Source of the DNA: Adineta vaga
Lineage: Eukaryota > Animalia > Rotifera
NCBI GenBank assembly: GCA_021613535.1
Contig: CP075493.1
Coordinates: 2,914,001 to 2,978,000, forward strand
DNA: 64,000 nt
Direction of reading: 5' to 3'
The notes beneath the pieces were generated by a model. The model worked only from the letters and a program-made list of their open reading frames with translations. It was not told the DNA's origin and ran no database searches. Every line of letters starts with the position of its first letter. Within the stretch, counting starts at the first letter, position 1. Below, piece after piece: positions 26,600 to 56,307 of this stretch. A program made the translations under genes and the position numbers.

Positions 26600-27195
26600 T
26601 TTCTTCTGATACTCTTTATCTGTCTATCCGTCCAATAAATACTACCACTGCTCCTCTTTGTCTTCCATTTTCATATAGCAATATTTGATAGATATGATGG
26701 CGCTATTCTCTACTATCTTCTTCCATCGAAATAAAGGTCTCTCTTTACATATCCTCTCATTTGTTTTGTTTTGTTTTTGTTTTTCATATAACTTTTTCTC
26801 ATGTCATTTTGTGAAAAACTCCGTTTTTAAGCTCAGCTCTGTGCATATCTTTACGTTTTCATATAATAACAACATTCCTTTCATCTTCCTTTTGTTAATG
26901 TGTTTGTTTTGGCTCGTTTTCTTTCTTTCTTTCTTTCTTTCTTTCCTTCCTTCTAGAATATATCCAATACTACTGATCTTTGCAACCGTGCTTTTTTTTG
27001 TTTTCTTTCATGGGTCCTGCCCTAGTTATTGACGTACAGTCTAATATGTAAAGAAACAATGAATAAGAGAGAGACAGACAAAAAATGAGAAGACAATTAT
27101 TGCATTTTTTTTTGCGTAAATACAACAACAATTAGACGATGTCTGCATATATCAAATTAAGTTCTTTTCTTTCGACATCCCATTTGTTTATACTA

Positions 27196-28858
27196 TTATT
27201 TCGGTTGTAATATTGCTTTAAACTCTTCATATGACACTTTTCCATCATGATCAAGGCAATCAGCTTCACCAATCATTTCTATCACGTCATCCTAAAAATT
27301 TAAGCAATCAAATCAAAAAAGAAAAAAGATTATATAATATATTTTACTTCAGTAATATGTTCACCGAGTCTTACAAGCATATCATAAAGTTCATTTTTAT
27401 CAATAAAACCATCTTTATTCTTATCAAAAACCTATATAAAATAAAATAAAATAAAATAAAATAAAAGAATAATAAATCAATAGAAATAATCATTTACATT
27501 GAACACTTTTTCCAGTTCCATACCACTACCACCGGTTGATTTACGTCTTTGCATCATTATAAGAAATTCATCAAAATCCACGCTTCCATCACCTAAATGA
27601 TAAATTTAACGAACAATCTTATCAATGAAATTTAGTGCACAATTGAAAAGAACTTTACCATCAATATCTACTTTTGATATCACAGATGAAATGTCTTCAT
27701 GACTAGGTGAATATCCCAGTGAATTCATTAATGAATGAATTTCTGAATTCGATATACTTCCATCTCCATCTCTGTCAAGTAAAGAGAATGATTCTTCGAA
27801 TACTAAATACAAATAGTAAGAACACTGAGAATCAATAATGAATCTTCCTACCAGCAATTTGATCTTCAGAAAATCCATGTGCTTCACTCAATTCTCGTCG
27901 ACTTTTACCAGTAGTTGTCTAAAGAAGAAAAATTGAAACAATTGATTTCTTTTTTCTTCTTCTTCTTCTTCTTCTTCTTCTAAACCTACAATTAAAACAT
28001 AAGTTGTCGTACTAGTAACGGTATGTTTGTACGTTATCGTATTTTCACAATGCATCGACGAGGCTGTTATCAATCTATCAGAATTATTCGAATTTACATA
28101 TAAACTATTTTCTCCTGTTGATATTGATGTTCTGTACATACATGTACTTGTCTTAACAAGGGCAGATTGCAGACGTAGTAGAAGAGAAAAAGTACATCGA
28201 GATGGTTATTTACATAGAAGAGACCATCATTAACTGTGATAGCCAAATGTAATATCTCTGTTTTCGATTCTCTAATGTCTTCTTCGTGTGTGTGTCTGTG
28301 TGTGATGACAACACAATGTAGCGAGAAAATATTAATCTAATTCTGAAGTCTTTCCTTAACCTTTGTTTGTTATTTATGTATTTATTGAGACAGAAACTAA
28401 ATTAAGTTTGTTCGTTTAATTAAACATTTCTGTTAAGATTATTAAATGATAAAACATCAGTTAATTTATTAGTTGAGATGAAAAATTAACTAACTTAGTA
28501 CACTCGAAGTTAATTCGATGATACATCGCAATAAGAGAGTATCTTGACCTTAATAGCTAGCATATGTAGACGATAACAAGTCATCATCAATCTTATTTGT
28601 CATTTATGTCGTTCTTTTACGAATTTTTCATCCTAATCTCTCCGATAAGAAAGTTATTTTAAATAGGAAAAGCAGAAGTAACTTAACTTACAATCATCCA
28701 ATCATCAAGAATTTGAAGATTAGGTGTTAATTGATAAGGATCTTCAATCAATGGTCGACGTCGTGGACATTCAAGTGTACATGATTCGGAATGTTGATGT
28801 ACTCGATTTTCTTTCGTAGGTGTTTCAAATGATGTTCGATCATTTTCTTGTGAACATA

Positions 28859-28897
<39 letters not shown>

Positions 28898-29045
28898 GTG
28901 AACCTAATGTAAATGTTACTGTACGTGACGATCTTGTCGGAAGATTTTCATCATTAATTGCAAGATCCAATCCTTCTCTTGTCATATCTGGATTAAATGT
29001 GCACATACTAAATAAGATGAGTTTGTCATAATGACAAATGCTCAT
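27196..29045 (-). CDS. Calmodulin-like four-EF-hand protein with N-terminal extension, copy 1 (two alternative first exons)
   Basis: FSEDQIA|VFEESFSLLDRDGDGSISNSE...DIDG|DGSVDFDEFLIMM...FDKNKDGFIDKNEL...EADCLDHDGKVSYEEFKAILQPK*. First exons starting at 29045 and 28139 both end in phase 0. Confidence 0.88.
28861..28896. repeat. (GAT)12 microsatellite encoding poly-Ser on the minus strand
   Basis: Pure gatgatgat run; shorter and interrupted in copy 2 (~37983-38005). Confidence 0.9.
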
Positions 29046-29419
29046 TGACTGACAATCTGAGTTTATTTGATAAGGAGAATTTCAAAATATGATAATATTG
29101 TTAACAAGAAAGACGTTAATCGAGATATTGACAATAGTCCAAATGGGTGAACTGGCGTTGTTGCTTTCTTTTATTGATTTACAGCTAAAGTATGAGTCGA
29201 CATCGAGATAGGGTAGTGAAATAAAGAATAGTATCTAAGAGAAAGAAATGTCGAAGATTTGTTCTGTCGTCTGTATTTTTGTCAATGATCTGCAAAAGAA
29301 ATTAGCTTTGTTATTGGTGCTTTTGTTTCCTTCTGATTCTCTTCGATTGCCATTAGATCTAATGGTAAGCACAAAACAATTGCTTCACAATATATGACTG
29401 TTTTGAGGATGTGAGTTAA

Positions 29420-30779: not shown

Positions 30780-31784
30780 ATGTCGGTTCGTATTGTTACA
30801 TACAATTTACTAGTGCCCATTTTTGCTGAAGCAATAGGAAACTATGTAGAATCTCGACCAAAATATCTCAAAACTGAATATCGATGGAAATTAATTCGAT
30901 CTCTATTGGAACAAGAGATTCATTATCATCAAAACACGATTATCTGTTTACAAGAAGTGAGCAATACCCTATTATCAACATTACAAACATTTTTCCATCA
31001 AATGAATTATAAGTTCTTTGAAAATCTATATGGTAATGAACGCAATGATTATATGGGAGTCGCTTTAGCTGTACCTGCTAATATACCTATAATATATAAA
31101 AATGAAGTCAGAATTGGAGAACATCTGCGTTTAACTATTCGATCGTTTGATAGAAGTTCCAATTCATCTGCATGGTGGGAAATTTTCAAAAATTCAATTA
31201 TGAAAAATATCAAAGATCAATCTGTTAATATATGGGAACGAGCCATGTCATTAAAAAATGTTTTGATTTGTGTGGGAATAATGATCCATAGAAGACCTTT
31301 GTTTGTGGGTACATATCATATGCCTAATCTATTCAGAGAACAAAGTATAATGATAATTCATGCCTCTGCAGCAAAAGATCTTATGTTTCAAATAGCCAGT
31401 GGTCGTCCTTTTGTTCTCGCTGGTGATTTCAATATGAAACCAACTGACAGCGTGTACCGAGCGATCACTCATCGAGACAATGTCGAAGATCGTGTCCTAC
31501 CAAGAGTTGGTAATCATGAAGTTATCTATCGATTCAATAAACAACAAGTATTACGAAGTGCCTATCGAGAGAGAAATAAAAAGGAACCAAACTATACAAA
31601 TTTTGCCACGACAGGAGAAGCATCTAACAATTTTTGTGGCACACTTGATTATATCTTTTCTGCTGGAAATCTAACTGTTCACGATGTACTACAATTACCA
31701 AGTCATCCAACTGGAAAATCATATCCTGATAGGACGCATCCGTCAGATCATTTGATGTTGGCTGCAACATTGCAGCTCGTATAA
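30780..31784 (+). CDS. Intronless endonuclease/exonuclease/phosphatase (EEP; CCR4/nocturnin/Angel-like) family protein, 334 aa
   Basis: Motifs VTYNLL, ICLQEV, TYHMP, LAGDFN, YTNF, TLDYIF, HPSDH; single uninterrupted ORF. Confidence 0.9.
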   Translation: MSVRIVTYNLLVPIFAEAIGNYVESRPKYLKTEYRWKLIRSLLEQEIHYHQNTIICLQEVSNTLLSTLQTFFHQMNYKFFENLYGNERNDYMGVALAVPANIPIIYKNEVRIGEHLRLTIRSFDRSSNSSAWWEIFKNSIMKNIKDQSVNIWERAMSLKNVLICVGIMIHRRPLFVGTYHMPNLFREQSIMIIHASAAKDLMFQIASGRPFVLAGDFNMKPTDSVYRAITHRDNVEDRVLPRVGNHEVIYRFNKQQVLRSAYRERNKKEPNYTNFATTGEASNNFCGTLDYIFSAGNLTVHDVLQLPSHPTGKSYPDRTHPSDHLMLAATLQLV

Positions 31785-36030: not shown

Positions 36031-36239
36031 CACCCACACCTTCAATCTGCCAAAATCAATTTGCGAATCATTCATTGTTTCCAATAATGATCTTTAAGCT
36101 TTCAGCCGCGCATCTACCCATCCACATCCATCGTCCTATCATCAATCTACAATCAATTTCCGATGTGTGCAGCAATTTCGAAGAAAATGTATTTTTGACC
36201 TTTCACCCACGATCTCACCCTCAAAGAGAAGAGAGAGAG

Positions 36240-38512
36240 AATGAGAAGACAATTATTGCATTTTTTTGCGTAAATACAACAACAATTAGACGATGTCTGC
36301 ATATATCAAATTAAGTTCTTTTCTTTCGACATCCCATTTGTTTATACTATTATTTCGGTTGTAATATTGCTTTAAACTCTTCATATGACACTTTTCCATC
36401 ATGATCAAGGCAATCAGCTTCACCAATCATTTCTATCACATCATCCTAGAAATTTAAGCAATCAAATCAAAAATGAAAAAAGATTATACAATATATTTTA
36501 CTTCAGTAATATGTTCACCGAGTCTTACAAGCATATCATAAAGTTCATTTTTATCAATAAAACCATCTTTATTCTTATCAAAAACCTATATAAAGTAAAA
36601 TAAAAGAATAATAAATCAATAGAAATAATCATTTACATTGAACACTTTTTCCAGTTCCATACCACTACCACCGGTTGATTTACGTCTTTGCATCATTATA
36701 AGAAATTCATCAAAATCGACGCTACCATCACCTAAATAATAAATTTAACGAACAATCTTATCAATAAAATTTAGTGCAGAATTGAAAAGAACTTTACCAT
36801 CAATATCTACTTTTGATATCACAGATGAAATGTCTTCATGACTAGGTGAATATCCCAGTGAATTCATTAATGAATGAATTTCTGAATTCGATATACTTCC
36901 ATCTCCATCTCTGTCAAGTAAAGAGAATGATTCTTCGAACACTAAATACAAATAGTAAGAACACTGAGAATTAATAATGAATCTTCCTACCAGCAATTTG
37001 ATCTTCAGAAAATCCATGTGCTTCACTCAATTCTCGTCGACTTTTACCAGTAGTTGTCTAAAGAAGAAAAATGGAAACAATTCATTTGTTTTCTTCTTCT
37101 TCTTCTTCTTCTTCTAAACCTACAATTAAAACATAAGTTGTCGTACTAGTAACGGTATGTTTGTACGTTATCGTATTTTCACAATGCATCGACGAGGCTG
37201 TTATCAATCTATCAGAATTATTCGAATTTACATATAAACTATTTTCTCCTGTTGATATTGCTGTTCTGTACATGTGCTTGTCTTAACAAGAGAAGATTGC
37301 AGACGTAGTAGAAGAGAAAAAGTACATCAAGATGGTTATTTACATAGAAGAGACCATCATTAACTGTGATAGCCAAATATAATATCTTTGTTTTCGATTC
37401 TCTAATGTCTTCTTCGTGTATGTGTGTGATAACAACACAATGTAGCGAGAAAATATTAATCTAATTCTTAAGTTTTTCCATAACCTTTCTTTGTTATTTA
37501 TGTATTTATTGAGACAGAAACTAAATTAAGTTTGTTCGTTTAATTAAACATTCCTGTTAAGATTATTAAATGATAAAACATCAGTTAATTTATTAGTTGA
37601 GATGAAAAATTAACTAACTTAGTACACTCGAAGTTAATACGATGATACATCGAAATAAGAGAATATCTTGACCTTAATAGCTAACATATGTAGACGATAA
37701 CAAGTCATCATCAATCTTATTTGTCATTTATGTCGTTCTTTTACGAATTTTTCATCCTAATCTCTCCGATAAGAAAGTTATTTTAAATAGCGAAACAGAA
37801 GTAACTTAACTTACAATCATCCAATCATCAAGAATTTGAAGATTAGGTGTTAATTGATAAGGATCTTCAATCAATGGTCGACGTCGTGGACATTCAAGTG
37901 TACATGATTCGGAATGTTGATGTACTCGATTTTCTTTCGTAGGTGTTTCAAATGATATTTGATCATTTTCTTGTGAACATAAAGATGATGTTGATGATGA
38001 TGTTGGTGAACCTAATGTAAATGTTACTGTACGTGATGATCTTGTCGGAAGATTTTCATCATTAATTGCAAGATCCAATCCTTCTCTTGTCATATTTGAA
38101 TTAAATGTGCACATACTAAATAAGATGAGTTTGTCATAATGACAAATGCTCATTGACTGACAATTCGAATTTATTTGATAAAGAGAATTTCAAAATATGA
38201 TAATATTGTTAACAAGAAAGACGTTAATCGAGATATTGACAATAGTCCAAATGGGTTAACTGGCGTTGTTGCTTTCTTTTATTGATTTACAGCTAAAGTA
38301 TGAGTCGACATCGAGATAGGGTAATGAAATAAAGAATAGTATCTAAGAGAAAGAAATGTCGACGATTTGTTCTGTCGTCTGTATTTTTGTCAATGATCTG
38401 CAAAAGAAATTAGCTTTGTTATTGGTGCTTTTGTTTCCTTCTGATTCTCTTCGATTGCCATTAGATCTAATGGTAAACACAAAACAATTGCTTCACAATA
38501 CATGACTGTTTT
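36240..38512. repeat. Segmental duplication unit B (direct repeat of 27084-29404)
   Basis: Near-identical to unit A; differences are scattered substitutions and microsatellite lengths. Confidence 0.95.
36350..38153 (-). CDS. Calmodulin-like four-EF-hand protein, copy 2
   Basis: Same exon structure and intact splice sites as copy 1; the EF-hand region differs only by synonymous changes. Confidence 0.88.
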
Positions 38513-39640
38513 TCCTATACAATTATCCATGATCCGAGATATGACAAAAACATTCGAAAGAATCTTCTCAAATAGACTAAGAAGTTTCTTGATTATCTTA
38601 CCATTTAATCAGAATTTATCTAAACAAATGAGATATTTCGAAAGCAAAAACAAGACGAGAATTATCTATTCGATGTATTTATATTACTTATGATTAGCAA
38701 TTGCAAACCATCGAATTGTATACATTACTTTGGATAAATTTCGAAAAACATATGTGTATGTATATCAAATATAAGATAGAGAAACAGGCTTAACTCAAAA
38801 AAGTGTTATTTGAGACTCGGAATACATATCGATTCGGAACAACGTCAATCGAAAAGAACACACATATACAAACAAATGTTTTTATTCAATAAATAAGTTA
38901 ATTTGATTCTCTGTTGATAATAGTAGAGAACATCGACCCCTTTTTTTCTCAGCGATAAGAAAAGACGAGTTCACAATCGAATATAGATTGAAAGCTCAAA
39001 TTAATCACTTCATTAGCTATAGTCTGAAAAAGTATGTCATTGATATAAGATAGCTTCTTTTTTTGATCTAGATATCTCTAAATCCGATATGATAAAATAT
39101 AAACAGTTAGTTCACTTATTATTATTCCTGTAATAAGAGTCAAAGTATTAGAGTGTAAGGTCAATAATAGGTCAAAATTGAAGAGTGCGGTAGTAGGCAC
39201 GTCAAGGTTTTATCAGTATGATTAATCGTTTTCTAGTCTGTCTGAACGAACGTGAATTGTAATTAAGTAGTGATAAAAAGTCTGTCTTAATTTGTTAGAT
39301 GATATCAAAAATTTTCTCGAATGGTTTTTTTGTTTACAAACACGACTGGAGCGGTTTTAACTAGATTCAAAATGATGTCTAAATAAGATAGAAATGGAGA
39401 CTAACTTATCATCTAAACTTTCAAATCACATCCTCATATCTTCACAACAAACATTGATTATCTTCAATATTCTTTTAAGATGAAAAATATATTTCCTATC
39501 AGTTTTCAAGTAACAAAGCAAGAGAAGAAAAATTGATTTGGACGTGAGGACCTGATGGTACATCATTGTAGACTGCTGTTAAATGAAGTTGATCGTAATC
39601 TTTTATTTTATATGATGGCAAAATAAAGTTGTGACTTGAA

Positions 39641-42400: not shown

Positions 42401-43703
42401 TAATAGCTTTAGTTTCATATCGCTTAAACTCTGAGGTTGTCCTAAAAAAAATCCTTGTATAGATGAAAAGGGTCAATCGATTTTGTGACGACGGAAAATT
42501 CCAAGATGATAGCAAAAATGTGTTCTCTCCTCTATTTATGTTATTCGCCTTGTCTTTTCATAGATGAATACAAGATAAAATTATTTCTCATTCATAGCGA
42601 GCGATACATAGATAAATTCATAGAATAAGATTTCTTTTACATTACTCATCACAAATAAACGAAAACTTTCATGCTTTATCTGTCTTTTTCTATCATCAGT
42701 TCATTAGAAATCAAAATAATCATGAAGTCAGTTACTGGAATCATATATTCTAATTGATTCAATTTCCATATTAAAGTTACATAAATGATTTTTCAAATAT
42801 ACGAGTCGTTTATAATTTAAATTACTGATATCAGATTTTTTTGCGAGAAATCTTCGAAAAATGAATCAAATAATAATAGGACTCGAATTTAATTTTAGTA
42901 CGAAACGAAACGTCAATTTGATTTCTTTTTCCCATCAATCAAAAGATAAGTTTTAAGGAACAATCTTCATCTTTTCCAATAAAAAAACAACACGGAAGAA
43001 AAATTCGTTGTCTCTGATGAAATATTTATGAATAATTTGAAATTATATTTCGAAATCAATATAAAAGCTCTTTTATCTTTATAATTCAAACTGAACAATT
43101 TTTGTCTTAATTTTATTAAATCAAAAAGATTGGTGTTTAAAACAGAGTTTTTGCTTCTTGTGAATTAATTGAAGATGATGAATAAAGCGTACATTATAAT
43201 ATTCTTAGTATTTGTTTTCAAAACCATTTTGAGTATGAATGATGAAATTCAATTCAACGTCATTATAAATACCTATACGAATAATAATAAAAGTTGACAC
43301 TTTCTTTTAAGAAAGATTGTATTCATTAAAGGAAAAAATAGAGAAATTTCTCTATGGTATGATAATGTGTAGAATTAGAGAGAAAGAAAGCAAGACGAAA
43401 TATAAATCGAAGAAGAAAACGTATAAAATATGTTGCTCACTTCTACCTATGATAAAATAATCGAAACCATGTATATATTAAGAGATCTAATTAATACATA
43501 GATTAGCATGGGATTGATTCATTTCTATACAACACAATGACAGAAAATCATATTCAAATTTAATTTAATTATTTACTAGGATAGAGATAGAACGATCAAT
43601 GAATAATTGTGGAAGTTTGTCTTTAATAAAATGGTGAAACAATCTATTGGTTTGTGTTATTCAACATTTTCTCATTGATTTTTTGACACGAATGGCAATG
43701 CTA

Positions 43704-45000: not shown

Positions 45001-45674
45001 GGAAGTGTTATACACATAGAATTATATTAATTCTTGCAGCATTATCAAAAAGTGACATGTTTTCTTCCTCGCGATTAGATTTAAACATTCTGCGAGTATA
45101 CAAATTATGGATTTTAATGAAGGGAAATATCTTAGAAAGATAAAGAATAATCGATTTTATGTTTCTTATCTATTTATGCTGTCCGCTCCGTCTTTTCATA
45201 CATGAATACAAGATAAAATGATTTTTCTCGTCTGATATAATTACACTACCATATATAAACAGACTTTCACTTGTCATTCAGTCTATACTGATCTTAAAAT
45301 AGTGAACTGTTCCACACTATTTTAAAATGATATATATTCTTTTTCGATTTTCTTCTTCTCTATGCATTTATAGGATAAATGATTCTTTTGCCGGAACACA
45401 AATGAATCATTCATCAAATATATGTATTTTATTGTTACAAGTCTGTTGAGTGGCTATTCTTTCACACTCAACACAGAAAAATTCTTCTTGTTATGTTTGA
45501 TACCAGCAAACATAACCGTGTAGGTCTTTTCTAGCAATACATGTCTATAGTACAGACATGTATTATTTACCTCAATATACGGTGGGTGATACTGCCCAGT
45601 TAGTGTTTCTCTATACGCGCGCGACTACACATATTTATTAATCTTCTCTTTATTACAGAAAAATAAAATATGAA

Positions 45675-48446
45675 TTATAATTTCTTTTTTACTTCATCCA
45701 GTTTATTTTTATACCACAGCAGATGAGGATGACTTTCTGGTAATCCTTCTTGTGCGATTTTTACAGCTCGTTGACAAAACGAAAGTGCTTTTGGATAGTC
45801 ACCCATGTTGTAATACACATTACCGATGTTGTTGTAAGATGTAGCCAAATCAGAATGATTTGGAAGAAGTGATTGTTGTTTGATTGCAAGGGCTTTTTCA
45901 TGAGATGAAAGTGCTTTTGGATAGTCACCCATGTTGTAAGACAGCGCACCGATGTTGTTGTAAGATGCAGCCAAATCAGGATGATTTGGAGGAAGTGATT
46001 GTTGTTTGATTGCAAGGGCTTTTGCATGAGATGAAAGTGCTTTTGGATAGTCACCCATGTTGTCATACACATTACCGATGTTGTTGTAAGATGAAGCCAA
46101 ATCAGGATGATTTGGAGGAAGTGATTGTTGTCGAATTGCAAGGGCTTTTTCATGATATGAAAGTGCTTTTGTATAGTCACCCATGTTGTAATACACCGAA
46201 CCGATGTTGTTGTAAGATGAAGCCAAATCAGGATGATTTGGAGGAAGTGATTGTTGTTTGATTGCAAGGGCTTTTTCATAATATGAAAGTGCTTTTGTAT
46301 AGTCACTCATTTTGGAATACACCGAACCGATGTTGTTGTAAGATGAAGCCAAATCAGGATGATTTGGAGGAAGTGATTGTTGTCGAATTGCAAGGGCTTT
46401 TTCATGAGATGAAAGTGCTTTTGGATAGTCACCCATGTTGTCATACACCAAACCGATGTTGTTGTAAGATGTAGCCAAATCAGGATGATTTGGAGGAAGT
46501 GATTGTTGTTTGATTGCAAGGGCTTTTTCATGAGATGAAAGTGCTTTTGGATAGTCACCCATGTTGTCATACACATTACCGATGTTGTTGTAAGATGAAG
46601 CCAAATCAGGATGATTTGGAGGAAGTGATTGTTGTTTGATTGCAAGGGCTTTCTCATAATATGAAAGTGCTTTTGGATAGTCACCCATTTTGTAATACAC
46701 ATTACCGATGTTGTTGTAAGATGAAGCCAAATCAGGATGATTTGGAGGAAGTGATTGTTGTCGAATTGCAAGGGCTTTTTCATGAGATGAAAGTGCTTTT
46801 GGATAGTCACCCATCTTGCCATACACCAAACCGATGTTGTTGTAAGATGTAGCCAAATCAGGATGATTTGGAGGAAGTGATTGTTGCCAAATTGCAAGGG
46901 CTTTTTCATGAGATGAAAGTGCTTTTGGATAGTCACCCATGTTGTAATACACATTACCGATGTTGTTGTAAGATGTAGCCAAATCAGGATGATTTGGAGG
47001 AAGAGTTTTTTCGTTGATGGCAAGTGATTTTTCATACAATCTGATCGCCTCTTCATATTCTCCTCGATTGTATTTGATCGAACCAAGTTGATGATAAATT
47101 TGTGCCTTGTCGCTCTCATTCGTTGCTTGATCAAGTAGCATTTCATAAATCTCTTCAGCCTTGTCATTCTGACCCAGTTTAGTTAGTACCAATCCCAATC
47201 TGTACCACCCTTCTTCGTCTGGAAAACTCTCCTGTCGTATGCGCTCAGTCAGTGCATGTAATTCTTTGTCACTATCACTGGTCAGTGTCAAACTCACTTC
47301 GAAGAGTTTGTTATTTCCACCCATTTGTTTGATATCCTGAATTCGAAACACGCTGTGCATTGAAAAAAGTACTTCATCTTCACCTGGAATGGCACTAAGA
47401 TCACGAATTGATGTAAATGTTGTTGTTGATTGTTTTGGATCAATTGTCATTACGAATAAAATTGCCACCAAATCTGGATTACTAATATTCTCTTTGGCAA
47501 ACAAGAGTGAAACATCTTTATCCTTGCTGGTGGATAAGAAGTTGTTAAATGATAGTAATCCACCTTTTGTTTGCTTTAGTTGTTGGAAATCTGCCTTTGA
47601 TAATCCTTGTCCACGATAAACTGTGAAAACATGATCAATATGTTGTTCATGATGCACGGATTCGATATGTCGATGTAGATCATTAATAAAGAAACCCATC
47701 CGTGTCATGATGTCGCCATCCATCATTCGAATTCCACGATTGAGCATGCGATAAAAGAAACACTCATAAGTATACCACCAGATAGGTGTTCTACTATGAT
47801 ATTGCCGCTCTAACTGTTTAATTTTTTTCAACTCTTCTTTGTTATCATTAAAACCATCACGACAATAATTGGCGTAATCTCGAATATGTGTGTCGTCGAA
47901 TTTGATGGTCATTATGATCTCCTTGAGGATCTGAGTATACATGAAAGAAGGATCTAGTTGATCCAACTTTTTGCCAGATGACACGAAACTCATTGATACA
48001 GCATTTTGTTCACATTGTGCTGCTGCTTGTTTGAGAGCTTCACATATATGTTTGATCTCTGTGAAGACTCCCTTGATCTTTGGCCATTCTTTTGCCCATC
48101 CTTCATGTCGTTGTTTGTTGCCACAGAAGATGAAAATGGAGTCCACTTCAGACAAATCATGTACCTGAGGTACAATAAGCTGTCCAAGTGAACCTGAAAT
48201 AATCATACATCCTTTACGATCTTTGATGGTTTCAATGAATTGAATGCATCTATCACTATCTGTATAAATATTCAGATCGTTGACGATATGTCGAAGTTGT
48301 GTCATGGTATTTTGACAATCCTCGTTATTGTCATCGATGTTGCTATCTAACCATATAAGTAGCACATTTTGGATCTTTTGAATATCAAGACGACGATGAC
48401 CTCTATGCGTTTCCTTTGAAACTGATGTTGATTTGCTACTTACCAT
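45675..48446 (-). CDS. Intronless 923-aa protein: receiver-like alpha/beta N-domain, NAD(+)-arginine ADP-ribosyltransferase (R-S-E clade) domain, and TPR array
   Basis: LLIWLD...IISGSLGQ...VDSIFIFC N-domain; ART motifs VYRGQ, FLSTS, GEDEVLF; about 12 TPRs, of which 10 are near-identical 42-aa units LPPNHPDLAxSYNNIGxVYxxMGDYPKALSxxEKALAIxQQS. Confidence 0.92.
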   Translation of the reverse strand: MVSSKSTSVSKETHRGHRRLDIQKIQNVLLIWLDSNIDDNNEDCQNTMTQLRHIVNDLNIYTDSDRCIQFIETIKDRKGCMIISGSLGQLIVPQVHDLSEVDSIFIFCGNKQRHEGWAKEWPKIKGVFTEIKHICEALKQAAAQCEQNAVSMSFVSSGKKLDQLDPSFMYTQILKEIIMTIKFDDTHIRDYANYCRDGFNDNKEELKKIKQLERQYHSRTPIWWYTYECFFYRMLNRGIRMMDGDIMTRMGFFINDLHRHIESVHHEQHIDHVFTVYRGQGLSKADFQQLKQTKGGLLSFNNFLSTSKDKDVSLLFAKENISNPDLVAILFVMTIDPKQSTTTFTSIRDLSAIPGEDEVLFSMHSVFRIQDIKQMGGNNKLFEVSLTLTSDSDKELHALTERIRQESFPDEEGWYRLGLVLTKLGQNDKAEEIYEMLLDQATNESDKAQIYHQLGSIKYNRGEYEEAIRLYEKSLAINEKTLPPNHPDLATSYNNIGNVYYNMGDYPKALSSHEKALAIWQQSLPPNHPDLATSYNNIGLVYGKMGDYPKALSSHEKALAIRQQSLPPNHPDLASSYNNIGNVYYKMGDYPKALSYYEKALAIKQQSLPPNHPDLASSYNNIGNVYDNMGDYPKALSSHEKALAIKQQSLPPNHPDLATSYNNIGLVYDNMGDYPKALSSHEKALAIRQQSLPPNHPDLASSYNNIGSVYSKMSDYTKALSYYEKALAIKQQSLPPNHPDLASSYNNIGSVYYNMGDYTKALSYHEKALAIRQQSLPPNHPDLASSYNNIGNVYDNMGDYPKALSSHAKALAIKQQSLPPNHPDLAASYNNIGALSYNMGDYPKALSSHEKALAIKQQSLLPNHSDLATSYNNIGNVYYNMGDYPKALSFCQRAVKIAQEGLPESHPHLLWYKNKLDEVKKKL
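45760..47005 (-). repeat. Tandem array of ten 126-bp units encoding TPR repeats
   Basis: ccgatgttgttgtaagatg(t/a/c)agccaaatcag(g/a)atgatttgga recurs every 126 bp. Confidence 0.95.
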
Positions 48447-51024
48447 TAACTTTGTTTCTAATGCGAATTTTGTAGTGTAAAATTAGTTGAAGAAGTTATT
48501 ATAATGAGAGAGTAGTGAAAAGATGCTACTTTTGTAAGTCTTTCTTCTTTTCATATAACTTTTTATTGTTATCAATTTAACGACACTTGAATAAATCGGC
48601 GAAAACAAATATGATAAAAGTGAAAACAAAAGTAACGAAGACAAGTTTCTTATCATTTTGTTCTTAGTCTTTACTGATACATGACGACTTGAAAGTTGGA
48701 AAAAAATTCTTTTTTGTTTATATCAACAGATACATTATAAATCGATGATAATATATACAGTTCAAGTAATATCTTTTCATCTTTATATAATAAATATTAA
48801 TTTGAGAACAAACAGTAGAATAATGAATATTCTCATTAGTTTTTTAGTATATAAATCAATTCATAAAATGAGATTTTTTACATTATCCTGAACATGGATA
48901 AACTATCTAGAACTTTGATGATTTACTTTATGTTTCCTAGGAAAATTAATCAAATTTATAATGAAATAATAAATATTTCTCTTTATATGCAAAGAAAAGA
49001 CATGAAATGTTTTTTTCTAAAATAACGATACAAAACTTGTTGTTATCGTCTAAAATTCCACGTGGAAAGTTTTGTATATCTAAAAAAACGAACATCACGA
49101 TAAAAGTAAATTTTCTGTTTGTCATATAATTTGTTTTCAAGATTTCATTTATTTCAAAATAAAAAACTAACTTTGAATTAAATTGTCAAACATTTCTTTT
49201 TATCGAATATGTTTAGATAATTCATAGAAAAAAGAGAAAATTCTTTTTTATATTTTCATCCTATAGTAACAAAAATGAAATAGAAAATATTCAACTCGTT
49301 AAGAATGTCAAATGAGTTTTATTAATCGAAGAATAAGAAGACATTGAAAAATATTTTCATTCCAATTAAAATTTCATTTCTTTGCTCTCTTATCAAATCT
49401 TTTCCAACAAAGAACACTCAAGAAAAGCTTTTTATCTATGATGAAATATTCGCATGACTCATATTTAAACGTTGTTATAATTATTAATGCATTAATGATA
49501 TTAGAATAACGATCTTCGAAAGAATTTACATAAGTTAACAAATTCATTTAATTAATTTCATAATTATGATCGAAGGTGAATAAGTATTGACTTTCTAAGT
49601 ATGGATCGAATCATATTGACATTTAAATCACAGTTTTTGATTATAAATGATGGAATTGAATTCGATGGTAGTATAAAGAACTATGTGAATAATAAAAGTT
49701 AGAAAAAGAGAAAGACAAAATATAATCAAAGAAGAAAATATGTAAAATATTTTGTTCACTACTAACTGTAATAAGATAATTGAAACTATGTACTGTATAT
49801 ATATAGAAAGAAATCTCGTTTGTTAGACTCCATTAATATATAATTAAGATGATGTTGAACAAACATTCATATGCATCTGTTTTTCGTTTTTTTAATCGTA
49901 AATTTACTTTTTGTGTTGACATAATTCTTTTGTTCTTTTTCGTAGTTGGAAAGAAAAAACAGTCAATATATTATAACCTTTGATTTCATATCGATTCTAA
50001 TGATTTCTATATCATTAAAATATCTCTGTATAGTCCAAATATCCAATTAATTATTAACATTTTTTCTTCTCAAAATTATTGAAAACATCTATGAATCGAC
50101 TACTCAGTTGTAAACGCTGATTCCGAATCAGATATTGGCTTTGAGTTAAATCATAGTTTCCTGATAAAAAGATACTTGAAAAGATCACAAAATGCGCAAA
50201 AACTGTATTTTAACACCAAATTGCCTAGATACGTCTGAGATGACCTGTAGTTTAGGAGTTTCCCAAATGCTTAGTTTTGTAGTTACTCAGAAGGACTATC
50301 AAAGATCTTCTATAGATTCATGAGATTTCTTACGACTGTAATCTCGGTCAATTCAAACACAAGAATTCATTCAGAAATCTTGCTCATCGAAAAATTGCTC
50401 GTTGTGATTTTGTTCCGTAGACATTCTAGAATGGTTCATTTCTCTCATAAACTTTTTGCAGTACACATAACTCTCGGATAAAATCCGAAGTTGCCATATT
50501 TATTTAAAACGCTCTTTCAAATCCTTGAATAAAACTGATTAAATGCAATTCAATAAAATGTTTTTTATAGAGAATTCAATTGAAATTTCTTCAAATAAAA
50601 CAGTTTGAATCGCTTTTACATATAATTCATATATCGTTTTTCTCGAGATTCTTGGTAGAATTCATGAAGAAAACATTGAACCTTATCGTTCTATGGTGCA
50701 CAGAAGTTTTCCTAATAGTCGATGTGATGTGGAACTATCAAAATTTCGTCTATGGCTTTAATTTGATTTTTTTTACTTCTATCGAATAATGTTCTCAACT
50801 GAAATTAAATCACTGTATATTTGATCTATCTGAATAAAAATTGAGATTTGTCAATGAATATTGATCTTTACTCACCTTGTTATAGAATGATTCAAAAAAA
50901 TCTAGATTTTTATTTGTTTATTTTCTGTTTAACTAAATCTTTTGATTATATTGTCAATAAATGATAGATGTTTTCTACTATTATATAGTGTATCTGAGGC
51001 TCAGAAAAACACTCACACCCACCC

Positions 51025-51560
51025 CGTCGTTGCTTTTATTGATTTGCATCTAAAGTATGACTCGGCATCGAGATAGGGTAATAAAATAAAGAATAGTATC
51101 TAAGAGAAAGAAATGTCGAAGATTTGTTCTGTCGTCTGTATTTTTGTCAATGATCTGCAAAAGAAATTAGTTTTGCTATTGGTGCTTTTGTTCCCTTCTG
51201 ATTCTCTTCGATTGCCATTAGATCTAATGATAAACACAAAACAATTACTTCACAATATATGTATATATCGGCAATCATAATCAGCGAAAAAGACATACAA
51301 ATGAATTTGGTTTTATTGAATAGATAAATTGAATTGAATATTGATTCACTATAGTCGAGAAAATATGTCATTGATATAAGATAGCTTCAGATCAAATATA
51401 TAAACAGTTCTATTATTCTTGTAATAGAAGTCAAAGTATTATTAGAATGTAAGGTCAATGATAGGTGAAATTTGAAGAGTATGATAATAGGCACGTCAAG
51501 GTTTTATTAATATGATTAATCGTTTTCTAGTCTGTCTGAACGAACGTGAATTATAATTAA
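51025..51560 (-). repeat. Third, partial copy of the calmodulin-like gene's 5'UTR/promoter region
   Basis: 51025-51258 matches 38263-38500 and 29156-29392; 51360-51560 matches ~39030-39267. No calmodulin coding exons follow. Confidence 0.88.
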
Positions 51561-51936
51561 ATACTAATAAAGAAGTTCTTTGTCACTTTTTGTTGCTATC
51601 TTCGATTCATAAGAAAAAGCCTGTCTTTCTTTTTTTCCTTGTTTTTGGTACTTCAACATGTCTTAATAAAATTCCGAGAGAATCGATCATTCGATTAGAT
51701 TGAATGATTTTTCTAGATGTTCGCTTTGATGCGACATCTGGGAATAGTATTTTCCCTCAAAAGAACACGCACACGATTCTAATCGTCTACTCCTAAACCA
51801 GTCATTCAAACAAAACTCTCGTGTAGTATAGTATTTATGTGTGTTCTCTTTTCTTTTTCTCGTTTGTCACACACAAACATCCCGACAAGTCAGAAGATGT
51901 ATTATTATTAGTATTTGTCGCTACATTTCTTATCTC

Positions 51937-54900
51937 ATGAATTTTCTCTGGTATTTTATCAGTTTTTTTCTTCATCATTCCATTGTTCAACTTCAATTCA
52001 CTGAAAGTTATGAGAGCTCATTGAATAAAACAGTCGATTTTTTCGAATTTGAAAATCTTTATGTTACAATTCTGGGCGCATTGACAAGCGAGGAACATAT
52101 ACAAATTCTTAATACACATACCAATCGATTATATCGAGCATCTGTTCATCAAGAAATCTTTCTTTCATCTCAATCGTTCATTCTTGATTCGAATCCTTTA
52201 TTAATTGCATTAAAATTATGTGAAATCGGTAATCTATCACATGCTAAAGCAATCATTGCTGGCCATGGTTACAATGGAAATGATCTAACATTAACAGCAA
52301 TTTCATATGTATCCGATTTTTATCATATACCAGTTCTAACAATTGCTTCGCGAGAAAATCTTTTTTCTGATAAAGTAAGACAATGATTGCTGAGAAAGAA
52401 CGAGTCATTTGACTATATATTTTTAGGCATTATATAGTTATATTGTACGACTTGTTCCACCGTATTTATATGAAGCTGATGCATGGTTTAGTATTCTTCG
52501 ACGCTTAAAATATTCGAAAGTTGTATTAATTTATAGTCAAGACGAAGAAGGTCGAATGGTTGCATCAAGATTTCAAATGTTAACTGAAGATTCAGATATT
52601 CAAGTAATATTTCGATGAAAAATCTTCATAGAATTTTTAACATTTATTTTGTTTTCAAGATTGAACGAACAGAAGAATATGAATCAATAGGAAATTTTAC
52701 TTCAGTTATATCGAATTTAACATCAGAAGATCGTTTATTATCACGTGTATTTATTATTCATGCTAGGTTTACTAAAATAAAACATTTTTATTTCTATAAA
52801 AAAAACCAAAAATTTTGAATTTTTTTAGAGCAGAAGATACGGATGAATTCTTATCTGCTATTGTACGTTTACAGCATTTAGAAAATTTCGTTTGGATTAT
52901 AAATGAACGTGCATTATCATCGAATAGTTCAGCTTTATTTGATGGTCTTCTTGGCGTTCGATTGCATAGTTCATTTACAGAAGAAAATCTTTTAGTTGAT
53001 GCAACAAAAGTTCTTCTTGATACATTTTATAAATTCATTGAACATACATCATTTTGGAATCAAAAGAAACCATCGATTAATTGTTCAACAATTGAACCAT
53101 GGCCAGAAGGAAAAGAATTGTATAGGTAAAATATTTAAAAACAAAGCATATTTTGTGTTGATAAGTTTTCTTTAGTAAACTATTGGAAACAAATATTATC
53201 AATGGAATAACAGGAAATATTGAATTTAATGATGAAGGTGATCGTGTGGAATCATTATATGAAATAATCAATATTCAAAATAATCAAATGAAAGTCGTAG
53301 GAACATATCGAACGAATACAGTAAGTTAATTTTTAATGATCTATTCATTTTTTCTCGTGTTCTTTTTCTTTTTAGAGTACCTGTCATAAAAGTGTTCTTT
53401 GTCGACAAATAGTGAGTTTAATCGTCAAATGTGAAATGCATGGAATCTCAATGATTTCTTTCCCTATCCTTTGTTGTGTGTATGTTATTATTGTGAATAG
53501 TACCTGAATGTGATTAATTCAATATTATGTGAGAAATATTTCATTAGATTGATAAAACTGAATTACAACTTGATGAACAAGATATTGTCTGGCCAAGTGG
53601 AATTCGACGAAAACCCGATGGAATTCGAACGCGACGAAATGTTTCAGTTAGTTTGTTCTTTGTTTTCATACGAATATATTTGCGATCTAATTAGGTTGTA
53701 ACAATTCATGAAACACCATTTATTATTGCACGTGCTGGAAATGATTGTGAAGTTCAAAAAGAAGTAGCATGTCCACGATTGAAGAAGAATGGTATGTTGA
53801 AAAAAGAATTGTTTTTAATTATTGAAATAATTCATTACGTTTAGGATCGATTGTTGTTGGTCATGAAGATTTTTGTTGTCAAGGTTATTGTATTGATCTA
53901 TTACAAGAATTATCGAAAAATTTAAGTTTTGTTTATACATTACATCTGGTTTCTGATAATAAATATGGATCGTATGAAAAGGTAACGAGAGAAAATAAAG
54001 ATATAAATTCCGTGAAGAAAAATACAGGATTGATGATGTGTTTTTGCATTAGAATATGCTAATCATCAGATGAGTGTTAGCAAGTTGTATTTTTGTATTT
54101 CATAGGATAAAGATGATAAACATAAACGATGGGATGGAATGATTGGTGAACTGATTGGCTATGAAGCAGATATGATCATAGCTCCATTAACAATTAGTCC
54201 AGAACGTGCAGAAGATATTGAATTTACTAAGCCATTTAAATATCAAGGCATTACAATTCTTGTTAAAAAGGTAATTTTGTTTTCAATAAAAATCTTTTCG
54301 ATAGTTTATTGTGACAATAACATTTCTAGAGTACGAATACATCGAATTTAGCGTCATTCTTACAACCATTTAAAGAAGCTTTATGGTTGATGGTTCTATT
54401 ATCTGTTCACGTTGTTGCTGTAGTTTTGTATTTACTCGATCGTTTTTCACCCTTTGGTCGATTTCGTTTCTCGCCACGACAACAAGGAGCTGATCGTGGA
54501 AATGGACCAATGATTGAAGCCAATTCAGAAGATGATGCATTAAATCTATCGAGAGCACTATGGTTCACATGGGGAGTTCTATTAAATTCAGGAATTGGAG
54601 AAGGTTTGATAAAAGATAAAACACGATGGAGAGAGAGAGAGAGGGAAACAATCATTTTCTTTTTCTTTCTTAGGAACACCACGAAGTTTTTCTGCTCGTG
54701 TTCTCGGAATGGTTTGGGCTGGTTTTGCCATGATCATGGTCGCATCATATACCGCTAATTTAGCTGCTTTCCTTGTGCTCGATCGACCAGAAACAACTAT
54801 ATCGGGAATTAATGATGCACGAGTATATGATTAGAATTGTATTCGAGTGTTTTGCTTTATTTTCTCTTGACTTTTATTCTTAGTTACGAAATCCACAAGA

Positions 54901-56307
54901 TGGTTTTACATATGCAACAGTCAAAGGTTCATCAGTTGATATGTATTTCAAACGTCAAGTTGGTATGTTTGAAAAAATATTTCCAATCAGAAACAAACAG
55001 AACGAAATATTTGTTTTATGATAGAATTTTCTACAATGTATCGAACAATGGAATCAATCAATTATGTAACTGCTGAAGATGCAATAGCAGACTTAAAAGC
55101 CCAGTAAAATACCTAAGAATTTTCTTTACTATCTATTAAATTTTTTTTATTAGGAAATTGAAAGCATTTATTTGGGATTCTCCTCGACTTGAATATGAAG
55201 CAGCACAAGATTGTGATCTTATTACAGCTGGTGAACTATTTGGACGATCAAGTTATGGCATTGCTTTGAGAAAGAAAGATGCATGGATCAATCCCTTATC
55301 ACATGTCATTTTATCATTTCATGAAAAAGGTTTTATGGAAACACTTGATAATAGATGGATCTATTTTAAAGGGTAACTTTTATTTTGAATAGATCTTGAT
55401 GATACAATGAAATGATTGTTTTTTTTTCTAGAATGAAACAATGTTCGGATCGATCCTCAACACCAGCAACACTTGGTGTTAGTAATATGCTTGGTAAGAA
55501 TATTGTTTTTATCTGTTATGAGATGTAATTATTTGAATATATAGGAGTGTTTCTATTGGTGGCTGGTGGAATATTTGCTGGATTTTTTCTTCTTGCAATT
55601 GAAATAGCATTCAAACGAAGAAAAGATCAACGAAATAAAGAAACGGAAATCTCGCGAAGTGCTTTGGTACATTGGAAAAAGAAAATCGAGGTAAATTTTC
55701 GAAATATCTATATCACAGATCATTGTTGGAAAGATGAAGATTTTTAACGAACATATGATTGTTGTACAGTTTCTTTCTGAAAAGAAAACAATGTTCAGAA
55801 AGAACCGCAAAAGAATAGCAGATTAATTGACGTTCCTAACCTTTATAACAGACGCGAATGTCTGTTGATTATAGCACAGAAGAATATGATGTGAAGTATA
55901 GTCATTGTATAGTCTATTTAATACATGCATATGGCTTCTATTTTACTATCATAACAATGAATAGATGAAGTTAAGACAACTAATCTTTAAAGTTTTATAT
56001 TCGATATTTTTTCATTGTATAGAAATATGTATGAGCTATTCTTCTGTTTACATTACGTCTATTTAGTAAAACAATCCTTTAGTATATAAATATCAATATG
56101 AATTCTTGATCAAAAGCATTTCCAATAAAACATTTTTCTTAACTATTTACATTTGAATTCTTTTCTTTATTCTAGAAACATCGACAACATCCATCATCGT
56201 ATGAAACCGATAATCAACATCAATCAGTAACTGATATAGATTTACATAATAAAATCTCATTAAATCGAACTGATCAATGTCGATCATTAAAAAATACAAA
56301 TATATAA
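51937..56307 (+). CDS. GRIN1: NMDA receptor subunit NR1 (GluN1)-like, multi-exon
   Basis: Signal peptide; ATD ([24 protein letters not shown]); [10 protein letters not shown]; [21 protein letters not shown]; LDRFSPFG; pore [15 protein letters not shown]|TPRSFSAR; SYTANLAAF; KGSSV; AFIWDS; C-terminal ...KNTNI* (56305-56307). Confidence 0.95.

Follow-up and report, generated by a model that had tools for sequence, protein, structure and literature searches.

A bdelloid rotifer gene that couples a predicted ADP-ribosyltransferase to a hypervariable tetratricopeptide repeat array, a candidate receptor-enzyme without a NOD domain

The tetratricopeptide repeats (TPRs) of Podospora NOD-like receptors (NLRs) form arrays of 42-residue units of the kinesin light chain type that are more than 85% identical to one another, vary on the concave face, undergo mixing and follow an N-terminal enzyme (Dyrka et al., PMC4986451; Ament-Velasquez and Saupe, PMC13449251), and high internal conservation of this kind is enriched in NLR-like proteins (PMC13449251). 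PMC13449251 mentions neither rotifers nor ribosylation. A gene with the repeat regime published for the fungal receptors (PMC4986451) was found in the bdelloid rotifer Adineta vaga, at positions 45675-48446 on the minus strand of a 64,000-nucleotide stretch (GenBank contig CP075493.1, positions 2,914,001 to 2,978,000), here called the window. It shares all the above features with the Podospora NLRs, including identity above 85% between repeats over at least 100 amino acids and diversifying positions (TPR 2, 9, 12 and 13) assigned to the concave face. Of the two hallmarks of NLR/STAND proteins it has the C-terminal superstructure-forming repeats and lacks the central NACHT/NB-ARC nucleoside triphosphatase (NTPase). 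It differs further in that the putative effector is an R-S-E ADP-ribosyltransferase (ART) behind a pseudo-receiver and in that the host is an animal. The gene evolves like an NLR of high internal conservation, yet it is not itself an NLR, and the NLR-like label given in the initial annotation of the window is corrected on this point, the NOD domain being missing.

Parts of this architecture occur in other described systems. The bacterial R-S-E mono-ARTs HopU1, Tre1, Vis and SpvB have the ART fold with arom-R, STS and ExE motifs; the rotifer domain differs from them by having only 10-21% identity in structural alignments, by not being secreted or injected, by its fusion to a sensor-like array and by its occurrence in hundreds of host copies. 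O-GlcNAc transferase (OGT) and SPINDLY likewise combine a TPR superhelix with a nucleotide-using transferase, and Asn is common at TPR position 6; both genes are conserved, with repeats that have diverged and a glycosyltransferase as the enzyme, whereas the rotifer family is large and fast-turning, with near-identical repeats and an ART. Kinesin light chain carries an N-terminal coiled coil that binds the heavy chain, while here the N-terminal half is receiver plus ART and the repeat type alone is in common. The signal peptide or membrane anchor of a vertebrate-type ecto-ART was not found (highest 19-residue hydropathy 1.13 over the whole protein and 0.38 in the N-terminal region). Last, the cRec domains are histidine-kinase-independent receivers of NAD+-linked conflict systems (PMC7824862, PMC9503650), and resemble the rotifer arrangement in placing a receiver fold beside an NAD+-using enzyme with no kinase partner seen; cRec has two active-site aspartates, whereas the rotifer domain has D34 and a Ser at the phosphoacceptor site.

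The gene and its parts are listed below. Close relatives are the best 120 of the 2,948 clusters at 90% identity (6,513 candidates) found in a search with residues 20-410.

45675-48446, minus strand: intact single open reading frame (ORF) gene of 923 amino acids (pseudo-receiver, ART, TPR array), no internal stop
48003-48374, minus strand: receiver-fold domain, about residues 25-148, without the presumed phosphoacceptor Asp (S84) or conserved Lys (T129), from the model and VIA
47271-47951, minus strand: R-S-E clade ART domain with a helical N-lobe, about residues 166-392, from Pfam, Foldseek and VIA
47610-47618, minus strand: arom-R motif YRG, residues 277-279 (R278), with R in 119 of 120 close relatives
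47526-47534, minus strand: STS motif, residues 305-307
47373-47381, minus strand: ExE motif EDE, residues 356-358, predicted catalytic Glu 358 (E358 in all 119 close relatives that cover the site, of 120)
47004-47219, minus strand: divergent TPR-like helices linking the ART to the array, residues 410-481
45744-47003, minus strand: ten 126-bp (42-amino-acid) kinesin-light-chain-type TPR units, residues 482-901 (tandem period 126, 10.0 copies, 92% matches)
45675-45743, minus strand: C-terminal capping helix and stop codon

In the full-length model (mean pLDDT 84, pTM 0.73) an alpha/beta domain and an ART domain precede a solenoid of helical hairpins, and a second model of residues 20-415 only, of moderate confidence (pLDDT 64), was used for fold matching. 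Two Pfam families scored above their cut-offs, ADPrib_exo_Tox (PF03496; residues 224-380, E 3.4e-8) and ART (PF01129; E 1.6e-5), both within residues 220-382. The top matches listed by Foldseek were all ARTs or ART-fold proteins (Vis, E 4e-8), and VIA applied to the shorter model returned HopU1 (Z 11.5, root-mean-square deviation (rmsd) 5.0, 174 residues aligned), 6drh (Z 10.7) and Vis (Z 10.4). The R-S-E signature is defined by arom-R, STS and [QE]xE motifs (PMC6829252), all of which are present, as first annotated; an aliphatic-R pair, I239-R240, also occurs. Of the 120 close relatives 112 retain the full R/STS/ExE set; among distant relatives, at 40-60% divergence, 147 cover all sites and 119 of these have R/ST[ST]/ExE. 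R-S-E ARTs with ExE modify arginine; on this rule, together with the database labels of the family, the domain is predicted to be catalytically active and arginine-specific. The case of XopAI indicates that an ART fold by itself is no proof of activity (PMC6829252). Residues 1-410 matched none of the PDB sequences, a comparison of the N-terminal half with PADLOC and NCBIfam gave nothing useful, and Pfam found in residues 1-410 only ART families and no NACHT/NB-ARC, the model leaving no room for a further domain. A Walker A motif is absent, and the pattern occurs in 3 of 271 family proteins without NOD context, in agreement with the first reading of the gene as lacking a NOD domain.

The N-terminal domain has no Pfam match. 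In the model it adopts a five-stranded alpha/beta receiver fold, and VIA aligned it with numerous receiver domains (Z 10-11.3, rmsd 2.5-3.0, about 112 residues). Residue 84 is Ser in 117 and Pro in 3 of the 120 close relatives, residue 129 is Thr in 70 of 70, and D34 is retained. As Ser84 and Thr129 stand at what we take, from strand order and the receiver consensus, to be the phosphoacceptor and conserved Lys sites, the domain is regarded on the modelled fold as a pseudo-receiver that has kept the fold and lost the phosphoacceptor; of the receiver-like domain proposed at the outset, the fold was borne out and the phosphoacceptor Asp was not.

The ten near-identical TPR units had been noted initially, and the tandem analysis agrees. 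Units 1-9 share 93.3% DNA identity and 0.87 amino-acid identity; unit 10, whose last third diverges, is 81.4% identical to the others and was left out of the repeat statistics. All five variant sets first described, A[T/S/A]S, IG[N/L/S/A], [Y/G/D/S][N/K], S[S/Y/F][H/Y/C] and AI[W/R/K], were found as written, and the accompanying claim of clustered, mostly amino-acid-changing differences held: the 19 segregating sites of units 1-9 require at least 25 changes, all of them within 13 of the 42 codons (permutation P 1.4e-4), and of 21 minor codon alleles 19 alter the amino acid and two are synonymous. Variants occur in mixed combinations, 26 codon pairs failing the four-gamete test, which means recombination or repeated mutation and supports the recombining array suggested at first; similarity between units does not clearly fall with their distance in the array.

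With the TPR register set by ungapped alignment of the unit to the consensus TPR, the main variable unit codons 10, 17, 20, 21 and 39 correspond to TPR positions 2, 9, 12, 13 and 31, and positions 23 and 24 show two-state variation. The positions that contact peptides in co-crystals are 2, 5, 6, 9, 12 and 13 (Magliery and Regan, PMC1261162), and these six groove codons take 12 of the 25 changes (binomial P 6e-5). Relative to the synonymous rate of the array, the nonsynonymous to synonymous ratio (omega) at the groove codons is 3.5-8.4 depending on the mutational path (P 0.013-0.0002), as obtained from parsimony counts and not a codon site model, the groove face being assigned by register and literature and not from coordinates. 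The expectation that the variable sites would lie on the concave face was therefore borne out in part: positions 2, 9, 12 and 13 belong to the published groove set, whereas S[S/Y/F][H/Y/C] (positions 23 and 24) and AI[W/R/K] (position 31) fall outside it.

The same pattern recurs in the family. The best match among the clusters is an A. vaga protein with 86% identity, and among the 120 close relatives 100 carry the name of an Adineta species, the other 20 lacking an organism label. In a library at 50% identity 6,026 representatives matched, 1,350 of them at E <= 1e-30; among 20 that were looked up, 8 were bdelloid, 11 had no organism label and one was labelled as moss, which may be contamination. 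Family members with a named organism are nearly all bdelloid. Atlas neighbours scoring at least 0.9 were rotifer clusters, and the C-terminal tails of distant relatives carry the same 42-residue unit in 127 of 134 cases. Within-gene variability was compared in 76 other genes (of the 120) having at least three internal units, after dropping the last unit; units were picked by a pattern fixing five columns, position 6 among them. The most variable positions were 12, 2, 9, 31 and 13, scoring 0.67-0.83, while eight positions presumed to be convex scored 0.27, and the profile correlated with that of the A. vaga gene (rho 0.66). Over all 77 genes the five sites were less alike than the scaffold (0.25 versus 0.77), and 325 different five-site codes were counted among 401 units. 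The lengths of the database relatives step by 42 residues (55 of 121 in two adjacent classes modulo 42). Mean entropy is 0.85 bits across the ART and 2.6-3.4 bits at the groove sites; residues 348-355, just before ExE, and helix 309-322 vary among paralogues, which could reflect differing substrates. One relative of 1567 residues (P0004) has two tandem receiver-ART modules followed by a TPR array, the motifs appearing by eye degenerate in the first module and intact in the second. The closest relatives, P0002 and P0129 of A. vaga, are altered: one is a gene model in which unrelated sequence follows about one repeat, and the other has an internal deletion of about 140 residues. Other relatives are broken or truncated too.

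Hundreds of contig pieces with 90-99% identity, from four DNA runs each of a different study, cover the gene and both flanks. They indicate many close paralogues, although depth over the gene does not give their number. All four runs also contain pieces that differ from the window at 0-1 positions; none spans the TPR array, so the order and number of units are without independent confirmation. Within the window a relic of the locus was also detected:

42521-43485, no strand assigned: diverged collinear copy of both gene flanks (compared with 45160-45259 and 48848-49807), the gene being missing (about 3.6 kb absent)

The alignment score of this copy was 90, against a mean of 50 and a maximum of 71 in 500 shuffles. 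At the junctions of the gene-bearing copy (45252 and 48848) an 8-bp AT-rich direct word is present, as weak evidence, and no terminal inverted repeats were found there. Both insertion and loss by short-homology deletion fit; loss from a tandem duplicate is slightly favoured, since variant contigs extend beyond the right junction. The paralogue contigs, the gene-less copy and the internally deleted A. vaga relative are signs of birth and death of copies.

It is proposed, with our judgement evenly divided, that the gene encodes a constitutive cytosolic receptor-enzyme for non-self proteins, which would modify the bound protein or a partner and would be diversified by repeat shuffling. Recognition of non-self is favoured because an unchanging chemistry combined with variable recognition, very high copy number and fast turnover is typical of biological conflict. 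The conserved TPR scaffold would offer a groove in which four or five variable residues of each repeat grip a peptide, and exchange among units would reshuffle these specificity residues, with unequal crossover or conversion as the probable source of new arrays. Once ligand is bound, the ART would transfer ADP-ribose from NAD+ to arginine, either of the bound protein itself or of a host partner, the pseudo-receiver serving perhaps as a phosphorylation-independent regulatory or docking module, and a role in defence would go with constitutive rather than induced expression. More tentatively, and leaning slightly to the side of doubt, bdelloids may possess, in the germline, hundreds of NOD-less ART receptor-enzymes that acquire new pathogen specificities asexually, by shuffling of repeats within and between paralogues; this would be an intracellular immune system of an animal not described before. 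How asexual bdelloids keep up with pathogens is a long-standing question, to which a binding surface rebuilt by mitotic repeat exchange would be a testable answer. If true, a NOD-less, ART-armed architecture would be added to animal intracellular immunity, and an animal would be seen to use hundreds of enzymes for arginine ADP-ribosylation in the cytosol.

As the initial annotation had supposed, the family already bears automatic database labels: 'NAD(P)(+)--arginine ADP-ribosyltransferase', 'ADP ribosyltransferase domain-containing protein' and 'Kinesin light chain'. They omit the receiver fold and the variable-repeat code, the last naming the repeat type only. Full-text searches, which mainly covered literature outside subscription papers, turned up no description of this bdelloid ART-TPR family, which thus appears to be auto-annotated yet undescribed. 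Expansions of TPR families in A. vaga have been noted, with defence among the suggested roles (Arkhipova et al., PMC3846280), and the main text of Nowell et al. (PMC11258130) mentions neither ADP-ribosylation nor TPRs. Supplementary Data 3 of the latter (numbering deduced from the file list), a Gene Ontology (GO) enrichment for horizontally acquired candidates, counts 431 genes annotated as arginine ARTs in A. vaga and 366 in A. ricciae. These genes probably correspond to the ART-TPR family, and were used as a proxy for its size and expression. In A. vaga 431 of the 542 'protein ADP-ribosylation' genes belong to the arginine-ART class (PMC11258130 Supplementary Data 3). The 'protein ADP-ribosylation' term has been taken as poly(ADP-ribose) polymerase (PARP) activity (PMC12220480); judging from the 431 of 542, part of what GO enrichments attribute to PARP-driven DNA repair may come from the ART-TPR family. 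At 24 h one set of 19 gene ids drives both the 'protein ADP-ribosylation' and the arginine-ART terms (PMC11258130).

Several observations weigh against the receptor-enzyme proposal. After fungal attack the arginine-ART GO terms occur solely in the down-regulated sheets (6/431, 19/431 and 8/366; PMC11258130), and the term is absent from those up-regulated GO tables and two other GO files that were searched. This sole expression proxy points to repression, leaving the pathogen defence suggested at first a candidate role only; repression under fungal attack speaks against an inducible antifungal effector, and fits constitutive sensors or defence against other microbes. Omega over the whole array is 1.0-2.4 and not significant, so that an omega significantly above 1 is seen at the groove codons and not over the array. 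The literature groove set was applied only after the variable codons had been seen, and hypervariability of the groove is general to TPRs with diverse ligands, immune or not (PMC1261162). High repeat identity is found in the A. vaga gene, its 0.87 lying at the top of the family range, but family-wide it is confined mainly to one subclade: the mean is 0.72 in the close clade and 0.43-0.47 in distant members, with a few separate high cases; in one set of 98 distant members it was 0.40, and 2 of them reached 0.8 or more. The nearest neighbour of a unit lies in the same gene for just 84 of 350 units, hence homogenisation within genes is partial.

Part of this evidence would suit an endogenous role, in which the TPR superhelix selects host substrates as in OGT and the paralogues regulate the animal's own proteins, for instance under desiccation or stress. 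The solved TPR structures nearest to these units include OGT and kinesin light chain, genes over-expressed in desiccation and rehydration are enriched for 'ADP-ribosylation' (PMC10809525), and induction by a fungal pathogen was not seen in the GO tables. We consider this role unlikely, if worth serious attention: slow-changing host substrates leave unexplained the multi-nucleotide amino-acid changes in five codons of near-identical units, and neither the diversity of codes nor the rapid gain and loss of copies is accounted for; moreover, GO:0003956 was not found in the desiccation GO tables searched. Rather little credence is given to an autoinhibited switch of the NLR/Avs type, which has the defence role in common with the receptor-enzyme proposal and differs in the target: the TPRs would only sense, and ligand would free the ART to hit one conserved host protein or to drain NAD+, killing or isolating the infected region. 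The catalytic half being far more uniform than the groove is in its favour, as are the conserved fold of regulatory type, the NADase activity of some R-S-E enzymes (PMC9503650) and the higher confidence with which the ART region is modelled when the TPRs are included, whereas no oligomerising NTPase was found by Pfam or as a Walker A motif, and the variable segments 348-355 and 309-322 could mean differing substrates.

A largely neutral amplification of duplication-prone cassettes with slipping repeats, the variation surviving only where the fold tolerates it, would account for a whole-array omega compatible with 1, for the broken and truncated relatives and for the gene-less relic beside the gene; retention of the catalytic motifs over 40-60% divergence, conservation of the presumed convex surface while groove positions vary, and just two synonymous minor alleles in nine units make it highly improbable. 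That the array is an assembly artefact, a mosaic of reads from close paralogues, is hardly credible: near-identical paralogous contigs are indeed many and none spans the array, but the frame is intact through ten units, and architecture and variable sites are common to 120 independent relatives.

The origin of the family was explored by scans able to detect close relatives only. Among the pattern matches in GTDB contigs 1 of 271 was a candidate relative, and no genuine close prokaryotic or viral relative emerged. The lone match (L001 3000-9055) was rejected as a bacterial source, being likely a chimeric assembly; in it sugar-synthesis genes of about 66% GC switch to eukaryote-like fragments of 28-38% GC with a frameshifted family copy. 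Of the viral matches 0 of 184 qualified, and searches of plasmids, phages and 400 further genomes of the phylum of the lone match found none.

The window has about 31% GC, and its ORFs are broken up and exon-like. The neighbours of 45675-48446 show up as short ORFs resembling exons, among them glutamate-receptor and EF-hand fragments, in keeping with the description of an intronless gene among intron-rich ones; one other long single-ORF gene lies at 30780-31784 (334 amino acids, endonuclease/exonuclease/phosphatase family, PF03372). Opposite-strand ORFs across the TPR array were dismissed as shadows of the repeat. Just 3' of the stop codon lies a further feature:

45634-45654, minus strand: two AATAAA hexamers, possible polyadenylation signals (weak evidence in AT-rich DNA)

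A multi-exon ligand-gated ion channel gene (Lig_chan), NMDA-receptor-like by eye, occupies 51800-55750. Segments 27068-29404 and 36225-38512 form a 2.3-kb duplication with 95.5% identity that contains an EF-hand gene fragment, and 232 bp of it, together with 39009-39281, are repeated at 51030-51576.

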